Notes: generated by a model not told the origin, from the sequence alone. A DNA stretch of 64,000 nt from GCF_058153355.1 NZ_CM177019.1, one strand, 5' to 3'; shown: positions 14,799 to 21,292, numbered from the stretch's first letter. Numbers and translations: made by a program.

Positions 14799-14999
14799 CT
14801 ATTCTTTTTGATGGTGATTCCAGTCGTTCAGAGAGTACTAATACACCTTTGTGCAACGTCCGCTCCTGGCACAAAGCTGACCATCACCCTCCCTCCAAAT
14901 TAATGAACACATCTAATAAACCCTAGCTAATTACCCTATCTAATTGAATAAATCAGTTTGCGTTATGCTTTTCCGACACAACAGCTGAAGGATAACGTC

Positions 15000-15851
15000 A
15001 TGCAAACTGCAAAACTGAACAACGGTATTGAAATGCCCCTGCTGGGCTTTGGTGTCTTCCAGATGACGGATGCTGCTGAATGCGAAAGAGCCGTTATTGA
15101 TGCGATCGATACGGGATACCGCCTGATCGATACCGCAGCGTCTTACCAGAATGAAACCCAGGTCGGGAACGCTCTGAAACAGAGCGGTATCGCACGTAAC
15201 GAACTTTTTGTAACGACCAAACTGTGGCTACAGGATACCAATTACGAAGGCGCTAAAGCCCAGTTCGAACGCTCTCTGAATCGACTGCAACTTGACTACG
15301 TTGACCTGTACTTGATTCACCAGCCATACGGCGATGTCCACGGAGCCTGGCGTGCCATGGAAGAGCTGCAACAGGCCGGTAAAATTCGCGCTATTGGCGT
15401 CAGCAACTTCCACCCTGACCGACTGGCTGACCTTATCGCCTTTAATAAAGTCGTTCCTGCGGTAAACCAGATTGAAGTTAACCCCTTCAACCAGCAGCTA
15501 CACGCCGTTCCGTGGATGCAAAGTCGTGGCATTCAGCCAGAAGCCTGGGCACCGTTTGCGGAAGGGAAAAATGGTCTGTTCCAGCATCCTGTTCTCACGG
15601 CAATTGGCGAGAAGTATGGCAAAAGCGTGGGCCAGGTTATTCTGCGCTGGATTTACCAACGAGGCATTGTTTCACTGGCAAAATCGGTGCGCAAAGAACG
15701 CATGGCAGAGAACATCAATATTCTCGATTTTGAACTCAGCTCTGAAGATATGCTGCAGATTGCCGCGCTCGATACCGCAACCAGCGCTTTCTTCTCTCAC
15801 CGCGACCCGGCGATGGTGGAATGGCTGACTGGCCGCAAACTTGATGTTTAA
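15000..15851 (+). CDS. Aldo-keto reductase (DkgA/YvgN-like)
   Basis: Start moved to ATG 15000 (AAGGA RBS); [25 protein letters not shown]-terminus, IGVSNF motif. Confidence 0.85.
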
Positions 15852-15877
15852 GTCGCGATAAAAGAGGTATTTATTCA

Positions 15878-16867
15878 ATGCAAAAACGTTATCTGGGCAA
15901 TTCCCGACTCGAAGTCTCTGCGCTTGGGCTCGGCTGCATGGGCTTAAGCCACGGCTATGGCCCGGCGACCGATACTCGTCAGGCTATCGAGCTCATTCGC
16001 ACAGCGGTTGAACGTGGCGCCACCTTCTTCGATACCGCTGAAGTGTATGGCCCCTTTCTTAATGAAGAGGTTGTCGGTGAAGCCTTAAAACCATTTCGTG
16101 ACCGCGTGGTCATCGCCACTAAGTTTGGTTTTACTTTTGGCGACGACGACAAGCAGCAGATTTTAAACAGCCGTCCGGAGCATATCCGTGAAGCTGTAGA
16201 AGGATCATTACGCCGTCTTAAGACGGATGTCATTGACCTGCTGTACCAACACCGTGTTGATCCGGATGTCCCGATTGAAGATGTTGCGGGAACGGTGAAA
16301 GACCTGATTGCTGAAGGCAAAGTTAAACATTTTGGTCTGTCCGAAGCAGGTGCACAAACCATTCGTCGTGCGCATGCCGTACAACCGGTCACTGCGCTGC
16401 AAAGTGAATACTCCATGTGGTGGCGTGAGCCTGAGCAGGAAATTCTGCCGTTGCTGGAGGAACTGGGGATTGGTTTTGTCCCCTTCAGCCCATTAGGCAA
16501 AGGCTTCCTGACGGGATCAATTAAGCCAGGAACAACTTTTGGCAAGGATGATTACCGCAGCACTGTGCCGCGTTTCGCCGAGCAGGCGATTGAAGCCAAT
16601 GAAAAGCTGGTCTCATTGCTGGGTGAACTGGCGGCAGAGAAAGGTGTGACGTCTGCACAAATCGCTCTGGCATGGCTGCTGGCACAAAAGCCGTGGATTG
16701 TTCCTATCCCTGGTACCACCAAACTGCACCGACTGGAGGAAAACCTGGGGGCCGCCGACATCATCCTTTCTCAGGATGACTCACGTCAGATAACCCAGGC
16801 GCTTGAAACGATTAAAATCGTCGGCGAACGTTACTCTCCTGAGCACCAAGCTCGCGTGGGTCGTTAA
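15878..16867 (+). CDS. Aldo-keto reductase (Tas/YajO-like)
   Basis: 329 aa; [11 protein letters not shown] and [11 protein letters not shown] motifs; AAGAGG RBS. Confidence 0.85.
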
Positions 16868-16891
16868 TACCCGGACGGGTCTACGGACCCG

Positions 16892-17785
16892 TTATTCCTG
16901 GTAGCGAAGCGCATCAATCATCAGCGCAAAAGCGGGCGGATGCTGCTTACGGCTTGGGTAGTAAAGATAATATCCGGGGAATGATGGACACCAGTCCTGC
17001 AGAACCTGAATAAGCTCTCCTGACTTTATATAGTCCTGCACCCTGTCTTCAGGTATACAGGCGATGCCAAAACCGGATAAAGCCGCATCAATCCTTTCCG
17101 CTTGCAGATTAAACGTGACCTGCCCTTCCACTCTAACCCGTAACGGTTTCCCATCCTTCTCAAATTCCCAGTGGTAAAGCCCACCGGCAGTCGGCAGGCG
17201 CATATTGATGCACCGATGATTTTGTAGCTCGTGCGGCGTTTCAGGGGCAGGATTTGCAGCAAAGTAAGATGGTGCTCCCACTACGGCCATTCTCATATCC
17301 GGCCCAATTCTTACCGCAATCATGTCTTTATCCACGCTTTCACCGAGTCGGATCCCGGCATCAAAACGCCCCTCAACAATATCGACAAAGCCGTTATCCA
17401 CCACCAATTCGAGATTAATTTCCGGATATTCCCTGAGAAAGGGTTTTAACTTCGGCCATACCAGACTTCGCGCTGCATGCTCCCCGGCAGATAAACGGAT
17501 ATTGCCGGAGGCGGTGCCGTTCAGTTGAACAAGCGATTCCAGCTCCTGTTCAAGATCGGCAATGCGAGGTTCAAGGCAGGCAATAATTCTCTCACCGGCT
17601 TCCGTAGGGGCCACACTTCGGGTCGTGCGGGTCAGAAGGCGGATATTTAGCCTCTCCTCCAGCGCCTTCATCGCATGGCTGAGTGCAGACTGAGAAACGC
17701 CCAGTTTGCCCGCCGCTTTGGTAAAACTTCGCTCCCTTGCCACCACAAGAAAGATTTGCAGTTCGTTGAAGTTTTCTTTGAGCAT
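16892..17785 (-). CDS. LysR-family transcriptional regulator
   Basis: Start moved to internal ATG ([40 protein letters not shown]) with AGGAA RBS; track start is GTG 13 codons upstream. Confidence 0.85.
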
Positions 17786-19156: not shown

Positions 19157-19498
19157 ATGTTTAGAACAGAAGACATCATCGACGAGATAACTCAATGGAT
19201 TGATTCAAACTTACATAAACCGATGAAGATAGAGGATGTTGCTGCGCGGGCAGGATACTCCAAGTGGCATCTTCAGCGGATTTTTGTACAGGTAAAAGAA
19301 GTTAGTCTTGGGAAGTACATAAGAGATACGAAACTTAGACTAGCAGCAAAAGATCTTATCGAGACTAATGAGCCAGTGATGGTTATCGCCTTTAAATATG
19401 GATTCGATTCACAACAAACTTTTACTCGGGTTTTCTCTAAAAAATATAAATTGCCACCATTGAAATATAGAAACGCGGAAAAGAGAAAAAAACATTAA
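19157..19498 (+). CDS. AraC-family regulator of the MarA/SoxS/RamA type
   Basis: Start moved to ATG 19157; ~113 aa two-HTH protein (AARAGYSKWHLQRIF ... FKYGFDSQQTFTRVF). Confidence 0.7.
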   Translation: MFRTEDIIDEITQWIDSNLHKPMKIEDVAARAGYSKWHLQRIFVQVKEVSLGKYIRDTKLRLAAKDLIETNEPVMVIAFKYGFDSQQTFTRVFSKKYKLPPLKYRNAEKRKKH

Positions 19499-19878
19499 CA
19501 GTTCAAAGTTATCACCCTTACGTAACATAACCAGAATAATAATATATTCCAGCATCAAAAGTTGACGTTTTTTTGGTCTGGAAGCTTCTTGTTCGGAACA
19601 AAGCTCTGCCTGGTTTTTAACATACAATGTCTAGACCATGACCTTCAGCCATTACACATCAGCCAAAATATCGAACAGAACCAGATCGATATCCAATCAT
19701 TTCCCCCTCGTGGCAAGCCATTAACTTTTAGATATGTTATTTACTCTTGCAGTCGATTCATGGCACTCAGCAGACAAGCTACCTGAGATGAAGATCAGCT
19801 GCGAGTAAGGAGAAGACATAGACAGGAGGATGCTGATAATATTTCCCCATTGGATTACCGTTTCCAACAGGGGTATGA

Positions 19879-20436
19879 ATGGAATACCAAACTTCATTGC
19901 AGAAAATATTGTCAGATGACCCTGTGAGAATGAAGATTCTCTATGCAGTCCAAGCACTGGAACTCAATGATAGCTGGATTGGGGCGGGATTCGTACGGAA
20001 CGCTGTTTGGGATCACTTTCATGAATATGGGCTAAGCCCTGTTTCTGGTGATGTCGATGTTGTCTGGTTTGACTGCGAATACTGTAACCCAGACCATGAT
20101 CGTTACCTTGAAGACACGCTTAGGCAACAACTACCTTCGTTTGACTGGTCGGTGAAGAATCAAGCCAGAATGCATCAACGTAATGGTGATTCTCCCTATA
20201 CGTCAACGACAAATGCTTTACTGCACTGGCCTGAAACAGCTACGGCTGTAGCTGTCAGATTGGGTAAGAACGGTCTCGATATCACTGCGCCTTATGGACT
20301 TTCTGACTTATTTGAACTGCGTTTACGACCAACTCCTGCATTTGAACGTGAAAAGTTGGGTACTTTTAAACAACGGGTCACTACGAAGCAATGGTTGGAA
20401 CGTTATCCCAGGTTACAACTCACCGTTTCCTTATAA
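19879..20436 (+). CDS. Nucleotidyltransferase-family protein (DUF925-like)
   Basis: 185 aa; GAGFVRNAVWD ... GDVDVVWFD pattern typical of minimal Pol-beta-fold nucleotidyltransferases; assignment from memory. Confidence 0.5.
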   Translation: MEYQTSLQKILSDDPVRMKILYAVQALELNDSWIGAGFVRNAVWDHFHEYGLSPVSGDVDVVWFDCEYCNPDHDRYLEDTLRQQLPSFDWSVKNQARMHQRNGDSPYTSTTNALLHWPETATAVAVRLGKNGLDITAPYGLSDLFELRLRPTPAFEREKLGTFKQRVTTKQWLERYPRLQLTVSL

Positions 20437-20629
20437 TCTAGATATACAAATATCCCGGTTCTTGCGGTTCGATTGTCTGATTGACCGTTCGCACCAGACA
20501 TGAAGTGTACGGACTGACTGGCTGAGCAGTAGGTTTGCTATGAGCGTGGAGCAGACGTTAGTCTGAATACTCGATGATATACTTCACCACAGAAATATCC
20601 ATTTTATAAGAACCGATACTTTAATTACT

Positions 20630-20989
20630 TCATAAATCAGCACATTCTAGATTTCCAAGTTTCTGAATTACAGAATCTGGATTCGCACAGGCATACTCCA
20701 TGACACTTAACCAAACGATTTTTTGTTTCGGGAATCCGTTGTGGTAAAACTGATACCTCAGGCCGGGGGCACAGATGAGAAGAGCAGGATCTCGTGCCAT
20801 CAACATCTCAATGTCCGATTCAGTATCGTCAGCAAGAACACTCCAATCTAGCTGTAAACTATTCAGCTCACTTTGAAGAGCCTGAATGTATTTCTCAGTT
20901 AGAGAATATGGGAAATAGCCTCTAAGCAATGGCGAACGGCCTAGTGTAGGGCTGGGGCTATGGATAAAGTAAACGACCTTATTTGTCAT
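20630..20989 (-). CDS. Hypothetical protein, possible degenerate PTS EIIB (lactose/cellobiose type)-like fold
   Basis: 119 aa with perfect AAGGAG RBS; weak resemblance to ChbB-type EIIB but lacks the active-site Cys. Confidence 0.3.
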   Translation of the reverse strand: MTNKVVYFIHSPSPTLGRSPLLRGYFPYSLTEKYIQALQSELNSLQLDWSVLADDTESDIEMLMARDPALLICAPGLRYQFYHNGFPKQKIVWLSVMEYACANPDSVIQKLGNLECADL

Positions 20990-21292
20990 TGTTCTCCTTG
21001 TTTATGTTTATACAGCTATTAGTTGGTAACGAACTAACGGTTTGCCTCTACTTTCAGTGCTTTGGCGAACAATATTATATCTCATGTAAAAAGTATAACT
21101 TTTAGCCAATTGATATGCCAACGTCCACTCCTGGCACTAAGCAGGCTGTCAGACGAAAGTGTAACGTTTCAAAAGTAAGCGTAAATGCAAATCAGTACAA
21201 AAAAAATTACTGTGGTTGAACTCCTCCAGAACGGAGGAGCTAAGCTTTAGATTTCACGCTACCTACTGATAAGAACCAATTTAAGGTTCGTA

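Follow-up and report, generated by a model that had tools for sequence, protein, structure and literature searches.

What does a pair of short direct repeats mark when it flanks a run of metabolic and regulatory genes beside a broken integrase gene? The question is raised by a stretch of 64,000 nucleotides of NZ_CM177019.1 (assembly GCF_058153355.1), here called the window, in which CAACGTCCGCTCCTGGCACAAAGC (14854-14877) and CAACGTCCACTCCTGGCACTAAGC (21119-21142) occur on the same strand and are identical at 22 of 24 positions. Both copies are intergenic. No further match with three or fewer mismatches was found within the 64-kb window, and 0 of 100 dinucleotide shuffles yielded any such match. 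The initial annotation, made from the sequence of the window, had described this 24-bp imperfect direct repeat with the same coordinates, orientation, identity, and intergenic position, all of which were borne out. It had left a chance match open; the shuffles exclude chance as the origin of the pair. The analysis described below shows that both 24-mers are decayed copies of a dispersed family of ~24-bp palindromes found at the junctions of mobile DNA cassettes.

A dispersed family of junction palindromes

The members of the family consist of two arms, GTCCGCTTT and AAAGCGGAC, separated by a 6-bp centre, and they fall into two types. Read on one strand, type A is GTCCGCTTT-GTGCCA-RRAGCGGAC, with the centre GTGCCA, and type B is GTCCGCTnT-GAGCGA-RRAGCGGAC, with the centre GAGCGA. 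The two types are often paired as inverted doublets whose centres are 34 to 37 nt apart; such A-spacer-B doublets, in which orientation alternates, were found in 9 cases in genomes and plasmids and in 20 cases in viral contigs. All sites are intergenic, and their orientation relative to genes is not fixed.

Single-strand folding of canonical copies is strong (z scores of −3.6 and −8.2). At the pair adjoining the centre of B sites, 18 cases of T.G on one strand stand against a single A.C; when the two pairs adjoining the centre are counted, in B sites found without a wobble-biased pattern, the numbers are 27 and 4. This asymmetry may hint at a single-strand function. The G.T-wobble asymmetry seen in A sites is partly produced by the search pattern and was not relied on. 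No Rfam match was obtained at the sites, either at the gathering threshold or at E values up to 1-5. A sigma-54 promoter (TGGCAC-N5-TTGC) was considered for copy 1 and rejected on inspection, as its −12 element is missing.

The degenerate core TCCRCTYYTGGCACWAAGC was found in species-representative genomes and in viral contigs, in at least 120 stretches of each. A 34-mer consensus occurs on 2,835 plasmids at 4,419 places, with a maximum of 21 on a Pantoea megaplasmid, and in 2,726 of 5,426 complete E. coli genomes, at 1 to 5 places each. Many copies per genome are present in, for example, Pantoea, Mixta, Enterobacter, and Pluralibacter. The palindrome is also found in metagenome-assembled genomes (MAGs) of Hyphomicrobiales, Nitrosomonadales, and Nitrosospira, and in Amphritea and Rheinheimera, and its range covers the alpha-, beta-, and gamma-proteobacteria. 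Matches in other phyla are without palindromic flanks and are consistent with the ~35 expected by chance. On MAG contigs of Nitrosospira and Nitrosomonadales, all copies have one orientation irrespective of gene direction, which suggests a replication-strand bias. A literature search by sequence gave no matches. One reading offered in the initial annotation was an att-like or recombination site pair from a nested insertion, a view against which, in its own terms, many scattered copies would speak; thousands are present on plasmids, prophages, and islands.

Site grammar and homology breakpoints

The sites are located where conserved mobile-element backbone meets variable cargo and where cassette meets cassette. 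A cassette is typically bounded by one A site and one B site in inverted orientation, and neighbouring cassettes meet in an A-spacer-B doublet. This A...B cassette is the dominant arrangement, with 37 cases in genomes and plasmids and 69 in viral contigs. Neighbouring A and B sites are inverted in 57 of 61 pairs in genomes and plasmids and in 92 of 92 in viral contigs, and neighbouring A sites are direct in 39 of 41 and 12 of 15 pairs, respectively. In phages, the sites occupy fixed hotspots beside DUF977 in lambdoid prophages (28 loci) and beside the tail-fibre assembly gene in the P2 Z region (13 loci). A single phage backbone carries 7 unrelated cargos among 18 cassettes, and the same cargo recurs in differing backbones: of two cassettes that are also present in the window (see below), M3 was found in 3 contexts and M2 in at least 4.

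The position of the breakpoints was examined by an all-against-all comparison of the 2.5-kb flanks of the loci (numbered with the prefix L). Homology was one-sided in 10 comparisons, and in every one of them its end fell within the 19-bp core: homologies of the left flank stopped at +10 to +15 and those of the right flank began at −9 to −7, numbered relative to the first base of the centre. At the base level, pairs that share the right flank (95 to 99% identity) diverge just left of the centre, and a pair that shares the left flank (98.5%) diverges at the first base past it. A TerB-N module shared by a Klebsiella variicola plasmid (L003) and K. pneumoniae plasmid p69-1 (L005) is 99.7% identical from the B centre on, and the preceding arm, spacer, and A site differ. 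Similarly, a 1.6-kb cargo (L034 4096-5714 and L134 3408-5026) is 98.5% identical, and the identity ends in the palindrome centre. This cargo sits in a P4-like satellite of Mangrovibacter that has an integrase and a P4-alpha-type primase, and in a P2-like prophage of E. coli, within its variable region; a 2026 preprint reports that P2 and P4 swap defences with other elements and not with each other (10.64898/2026.02.27.708500).

The initial annotation had also suggested a shared regulator binding site. An operator for a common transcription factor (for example, of the LysR type) or a transcription terminator would account for a palindromic sequence, and LysR genes are the commonest neighbours of the sites (10 loci). 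However, the distance and orientation of the sites to any gene class are not constant, no neighbouring gene is common to them, and sites are also found in phage structural-gene regions and beside genes for DUF977 or for tail-fibre assembly. The stem is not followed by a T-run, and no site in the window was called terminator-like. Breakpoints inside the core would also be left unexplained, and we regard an operator or terminator as very unlikely.

Site-specific recombination gives the best fit to the arm-centre-arm layout, the central exchange, the two centre types, and the direct arrays. We put the probability that the sites are recombination sites, at which cassettes are exchanged at the palindrome centre, at about one-half. 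The two arms would serve as protein-binding half-sites, and the 6-bp centre would be the exchange region. Two parts of this model are inferred: that an enzyme carries out the exchange at the centre and that cassettes pass through a circular form. Insertion of circular cassettes by A x A or B x B events would leave direct repeats, such as those around M2, and paired A...B sites on two replicons would permit a cargo swap without excision. The enzyme would be a recombinase other than the P4-type integrase adjacent to the array in the window.

Several observations weigh against exchange by such a system. Each of the breakpoint pairs bounds the exchange point from one side only, and the core is near-identical in all copies, so that short-homology recombination anywhere in the core would look alike. 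Searches for HUH, tyrosine, and serine enzymes found no recombinase or transposase consistently near the sites. A P4-type integrase lies within 4 kb at only 2 of ~120 genome loci, resolvases are rare, and no open reading frame (ORF) resembling HUH enzymes or REP-associated tyrosine transposases (RAYTs) was found by phmmer among the 5,937 ORFs in the loci with IS200 TnpA and E. coli RAYT queries. Clustering of the ORFs near the sites returned only cargo families (LysR, short-chain dehydrogenase/reductase [SDR], and two-component systems) or phage backbone genes. M2 is without a B end of its own in all four contexts. The genes on either side of the sites in a Nitrosospira MAG are ordinary chromosomal ones, as with classical repetitive extragenic palindromic (REP) elements. 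Finally, the two window copies are considered decayed because hairpin folding has been lost (z about 0); they are probably relics, and current activity in this genome is not indicated.

The likeness to REP elements deserves closer attention. The sites could be non-autonomous hairpins of the kind found in REPs and bacterial interspersed mosaic elements (BIMEs), spread by an HUH/RAYT-type single-stranded DNA enzyme or kept for a structural role in RNA or DNA. Cassette exchange would then be a by-product, with 19- to 35-bp near-identical palindromes acting as hot spots of RecA-dependent or illegitimate recombination. REPs, BIMEs, and REPINs (REP doublets forming hairpins) have long been known as hot spots of insertion and recombination, and they share with the A/B family the form of short G+C-rich extragenic palindromes with two alternating variants and doublets; in E. 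coli BIMEs, Y and Z palindromic units alternate in orientation. The consistently intergenic position without fixed gene orientation, the alternation of two types in doublets, and the strong folding of canonical copies all favour this explanation, as do the Nitrosospira and Nitrosomonadales sites, which lie between ordinary genes with one orientation per contig. The T.G excess beside the B-site centre is compatible with strand-specific folding. In contrast to the hundreds of copies per genome that characterize REPs and BIMEs, the A/B palindromes have a low enterobacterial copy number (1 to 5 per E. coli genome), are tied to mobile-element hotspots, and are without the GTAG tag, and the RAYT/IS200-like ORF was not found in the loci. 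REP sequences are usually lineage-specific, whereas the A/B sequence is nearly the same across three proteobacterial classes. Moreover, a strict A...B grammar and fixed phage-backbone hotspots would be unexpected for freely spreading REPs. We therefore consider a REP/BIME-like origin doubtful, although it deserves to be taken seriously. CGTC-tagged REP families, which have 8- to 9-bp stems, 4- to 5-nt loops, and a CCA tail (PMC3733652), were rejected as a match on the basis of their differing geometry.

A tandem cassette array beside tRNA-Thr

The window was searched by nhmmer with a profile built from 226 sites, none of which came from the window. Four significant sites and one marginal site were found; they are confined to 9.0-21.2 kb, and the rest of the 64 kb gave none. 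A loop-anchored scan gave 4 sites scoring ≥10, compared to 0.37 expected. The resulting order begins with a B site (from 9033), M3, an A site (to 14886), M2, and a decayed A site (to 19775) followed by a B-like remnant (from ~19794); it continues with a nucleotidyltransferase cassette, a probable A relic next to a further B site (from 20528), the orf119 cassette, an A site (to 21152), the integrase gene, and tRNA-Thr. Inverted A/B brackets surround M3 (B at 9033 and A at 14886) and orf119 (B at 20528 and A at 21152), and the three window A sites have a common orientation. The DNA beside the dead tRNA-Thr integrase is a tandem array of about four cassettes. Four stacked cassettes, now decayed, make up the thrW island; it has about seven boundary sites, two of which, the A sites of the first and last cassettes, are the flagged pair.

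The left boundary of M3 is a B-type palindrome (GGCCGCTTT GAGCGA AGAGCGGAC; 9033-9064, plus strand) detected both by nhmmer (E = 4e-7) and by the loop-anchored scan; the M3 module of the K. variicola plasmid likewise opens with a B site, at L003 position 2375. By Pfam, M3 (9065-14851) encodes an old yellow enzyme (OYE) flavin reductase, an SDR, an NmrA-like protein, two alpha/beta hydrolases, and a LysR protein. Part of it (11226-14877) is 92.5% identical to L003 2427-6074 and is also present in Shimwellia (L060). Each copy of M3 closes with an A site, after which the DNA differs. The alpha/beta-hydrolase genes (11908-12840 and 12840-13772) are adjacent paralogues of 310 amino acids each, in which a 50-nt stretch is 74% alike at a spacing of 914 nt.

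The A-type palindrome that closes M3 in the window is copy 1 (unit strand GTCAGCTTT GTGCCA GGAGCGGAC GTTG; 14852-14886, minus strand; nhmmer E = 7e-9). The breakpoints of the LysR-block homology and of the aldo-keto reductase (AKR)-block homology both fall within this site. In a BLAST search with 13.8-22.8 kb, the upstream LysR block matched the K. variicola plasmid up to window position 14877, and the matches of M2 began at 14858/9, always at a palindrome of the A/B family. M2 (14887-19751) encodes, by Pfam, two AKRs, a LysR protein, an NmrA-like SDR, a DUF1471 protein, and a RamA/MarA-like regulator, and blocks ~91% identical to it are found in E. coli chromosomes and in Klebsiella, Pantoea, and E. 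coli plasmids. Its right bracket is a decayed A-type site (top strand GTCGATTCATGGCACTCAGCAGAC; 19752-19775, minus strand), identified by a marginal profile match (nhmmer E = 0.15 for 19760-19779), a loop-anchored score of 10 out of 18, and its position: a clean A-spacer-B doublet in E. coli (L001 10657-10721) follows the same RamA-like gene and is positionally homologous to it. Direct repeats therefore bracket the AKR block (14858-14881 and 19752-19775), as in E. coli L001.

Some A sites at other loci (L020, L046, L065, L107, L108, and L124) carry a cargo-side extension of ~45 nt (TGACCTGCTCCCCGTTGATAAATACACC...TTAGTAACG), a weaker form of which lies at window positions 14822-14857. A 62-mer containing this extension was found on 3,132 plasmids and constitutes an unannotated, widespread repeat. 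Its start (TGACCTGCTCCCC...) resembles an end of the IS3 family (IS407 group).

To the right of M2, a very decayed B-like remnant (~19794-19817) was recognized by inspection only. It is followed by a single-gene cassette (19818-20527) for a nucleotidyltransferase (NTP_transf_6) with 82% identity to a cassette of the K. michiganensis plasmid L140. The L140 cassette is flanked by AATCTGACAG-B and A-CTGTCAGATT, and the window homology starts at 19815. A probable A relic (~20487-20510) was placed by positional alignment only. The next B-type palindrome (GTTTGCTAT GAGCGT GGAGCAGAC; 20528-20562, plus strand; nhmmer E = 0.0012) forms the left boundary of the orf119 cassette (20563-21117, minus strand), which holds a 119-amino-acid ORF without a Pfam family; homologues ~70% identical to it are encoded on Pantoea and Duffyella plasmids.

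Copy 2 is the A-type palindrome at the far end of the orf119 cassette (unit strand CTGACAG CCTGCTTA GTGCCA GGAGTGGAC GTTGG; 21118-21152, minus strand; nhmmer E = 1.5e-6), and it separates the cargo from the integrase module. Integrase gene and site are laid out in the same way in an E. coli tRNA-Gly island (L004), where the cargo is different and homology to the integrase module begins at window position 21124. A promoter-like sequence, TTGGCA-18-TATACT (10 of 12 positions; 21121-21092, minus strand), has its start at the A site's inner edge and is directed into orf119; in the record of phage P2-EC67, −35 and −10 signals are likewise annotated directly inside the left repeat.

The P4-type tyrosine integrase gene (21293-22488, minus strand) is a pseudogene broken by a frameshift or stop, with the Pfam domains Arm-DNA-bind_3, Phage_int_M, and Phage_integrase on two ORF fragments (21868-22488 and 21293-21715). 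Copy 2 had been placed just inside its 3' end; the C-terminal fragment in fact stops at 21293 on the minus strand, and copy 2 lies ~150 nt downstream, separated from the stop by a hairpin and then a T-run. The integration target of the island is tRNA-Thr(CGT) (22651-22726, minus strand; ARAGORN, Rfam, and Pfam), on the far side of which lie proA, proB, and phoE.

This setting bears on the proposal that the pair are att-like sites left when the 14.9-21.1 kb block entered in one nested insertion by means of the neighbouring integrase. The copies are indeed direct repeats, and one of them adjoins the integrase gene. However, a tRNA-integrating island would have direct repeats that derive from the tRNA 3' end and enclose int, whereas the two copies are unlike the 3' end of tRNA-Thr and are both on one side of int; a tRNA-derived att site was rejected on these grounds. 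No second copy of the tRNA-Thr 3' 25-mer (three or fewer mismatches) was found in the window. The motif is generic, and a P4-type integrase is missing near most other sites. Nor do the copies bracket one block, as the clear B site at 20528-20562 and the decayed A site at 19752-19775 lie between them. The 6.3-kb segment is a composite whose parts are separate elsewhere; in other genomes the AKR block ends at the equivalents of 18761, 19096, or 19491 and never extends as far as that of 21119. A comparison with genomes lacking the block, in which a residual single site might be seen, had been advised; an exact-protein look-up of the LysR protein and orf119 returned only the window-like arrangement. 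What holds of the proposal is its recombinational part, which is supported by the junction behaviour and by a variable region that looks like successive cassette insertions; an att pair from a single insertion is most improbable.

Other features were noted in the window and at related loci. Two tandem matches to Rfam naRNA4 (CssrE), a REP/BIME-derived nucleoid-associated RNA, at 41376-41453 and 41581-41658 are classical REP elements, and their sequence is unrelated to the A/B palindromes. Identical short strings lie in inverted orientation ~7 kb apart at ~42137-42516 and ~49408-49787 (for example, ttacgcagtcCTTCACTCTGAGCGAAAGATTTACccaacacagg at 42137 on the minus strand and 49787 on the plus strand; TCTGAAGGACCGCTT at 42502 on the plus strand and 49422 on the minus strand), which suggests a pair of inverted duplicated segments. 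The G+C content falls to 35 to 39% at 57001-59000 and to 40% at 44001-45000, compared to ~53% overall, suggesting further horizontally acquired DNA. In plasmid p69-1, an element at L005 9262-10316 (ends GGCTTTGTTGAATAAATCG), which we take to be IS903/IS102-like, interrupts the AKR cassette after the DUF1471 gene and is missing from the gene table of the plasmid. Two loci carry closely related serine resolvase genes, one within ~25 nt of a junction palindrome (L021 3613-4258) and the other exactly at the truncated end of the AKR cassette, adjoining a Tn3-type transposase fragment (L002 9870-10454); their positions may reflect Tn3-family insertion near the sites.

Relation to known elements and meaning of the sites

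The element has an earlier history in P2-like phages. The consensus 34-mer matches GenBank AJ512685, from the Z region of P2-EC67, under the feature "left inverted repeat," and in both AJ512685 and AJ512683 left and right inverted repeats are annotated around the foreign ORF1 of the P2 Z region. The annotated left repeat includes CTGACAG-TCCGCTCT-GTGCCA-GAAGTGGA, and the right repeat includes a B-type palindrome. Both window copies are similar to, and align with, the annotated left and right repeats, copy 2 aligning with the left repeat of P2-EC67. The inverted repeats of the Z and TO regions of P2-like coliphages (AJ512677, AJ512683, and AJ512685) are the same sequence element, bounding acquired ORFs amid conserved backbone genes, and the window has such a backbone/cargo boundary at the integrase module that it shares with L004. 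Unlike in the phages, the element in the window belongs to a tRNA-Thr island whose cargo is metabolic and regulatory, with a tandem cassette array and decayed sites. Nilsson, Karlsson, and Haggard-Ljungquist (Mol Biol Evol 2004, 21:1), from whom these GenBank records come, reportedly proposed site-specific recombination for the foreign ORFs of P2-like coliphages. The element was already noticed in 2004; of wider interest are the breadth of the family, its strict grammar, and the fact that recent studies of defence hotspots leave it out.

In another reading, the sites are parts of terminal inverted repeats (TIRs) of non-autonomous cargo transposons (mobile insertion cassettes), with imperfect TIRs of ~40 bp (AATCTGACAG plus palindrome), which a transposase would move in trans and which would insert preferentially beside existing ends. 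Both P2-EC67 ORF1 and the L140 nucleotidyltransferase cassette are flanked by AATCTGACAG...CTGTCAGATT plus inverted A/B palindromes, so that TIR-like ends are present; the dominance of A...B cassettes is as expected, and doublets resemble two abutting ends. In three P2-like phages with three cargos, however, identity of the backbone continues across the outer arm and the centre, and it is the inner arms and the ORF that differ. The CTGACAG extension also stays with the backbone, so that the "TIR" is divided, its outer half going with the backbone and the rest with the cargo. The same split is seen in the L034/L134 and L003/L005 comparisons. A-only direct arrays are without an inverted partner. 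As for the other hallmarks of mobile insertion cassettes and miniature inverted-repeat transposable elements, neither a target-site duplication nor a cognate transposase was found. Transposon ends are therefore an unlikely explanation.

Returning to exchange at the palindrome centre, integron attC arrays are alike in having self-contained or promoter-poor cassettes, imperfect palindromic sites in one orientation, and unrelated cargo at the same position, and the direct A-A arrays show one-orientation sites between cassettes. In contrast to integrons, the RYYYAAC/GTTRRRY boxes and the IntI/attI/Pc (cassette promoter) platform are absent. Among more than 100 sites inspected, only a partial AAC...GTT was seen at the palindrome edges, and the stems are perfect, without bulges. 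Instead of an adjacent intI with attI and Pc, the window has a P4-type integrase (Arm-DNA-bind_3 plus Phage_int_M), and most loci are without an integrase. The sites are also unlike attC in being simple 24-bp palindromes or 60-nt doublets, with apparent exchange points at two places per junction.

Another parallel in layout is found in the pdif (XerC/D-like) modules of Acinetobacter plasmids and in engineered cassette exchange between heterospecific lox or FRT sites, where modules likewise lie between paired inverted short sites built as arm, 6-bp centre, and arm. As with heterospecific lox or FRT sites, two centres (GTGCCA and GAGCGA) would block excision yet permit swapping. Unlike pdif, the arms are dissimilar on inspection to the XerC/XerD binding sequences; compared by inspection to dif, cer, and psi, they match at ~2 of 11 positions, which does not indicate Xer sites. 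The spacer of the sfx sites of the Rci shufflon, GTGCCAA, is near the A centre GTGCCA(R), and the 24- to 26-bp inverted layout with outer TGTCYG-like half-sites is reminiscent of resolvase and invertase sites (res and hix). The arms, however, are unlike those of Rci and serine-recombinase sites, and the neighbourhood of the palindromes does not generally contain Rci or resolvase genes.

For this window, the practical result is modest. The palindrome itself is a cheap marker of cassette boundaries for annotators. No explanation has yet been given for the replacement of cargo at fixed hotspot positions in phages, satellites, and islands. In a 2026 survey of hotspots in P2 and P4, defence genes are said to enter at predictable locations "through a presumably different mechanism," and the repeats described here go unmentioned (10.64898/2026.02.27.708500). 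The sites described here are present at the P2 Z/TO hotspots, a P4-like hotspot, the lambdoid hotspot by DUF977, and on thousands of plasmids, and a defined 24-bp site with a strict grammar and central breakpoints makes the hotspot question directly testable. We suggest, tentatively, that the A/B palindromes may be the sites of a widespread, uncharacterized cassette-exchange system with a trans-acting recombinase, comparable to a natural form of recombinase-mediated cassette exchange or, loosely, to integrons. If so, such a system would move defence, metabolic, and regulatory cassettes among P2-like phages, P4-like satellites, lambdoid prophages, plasmids, and tRNA islands across the Proteobacteria.

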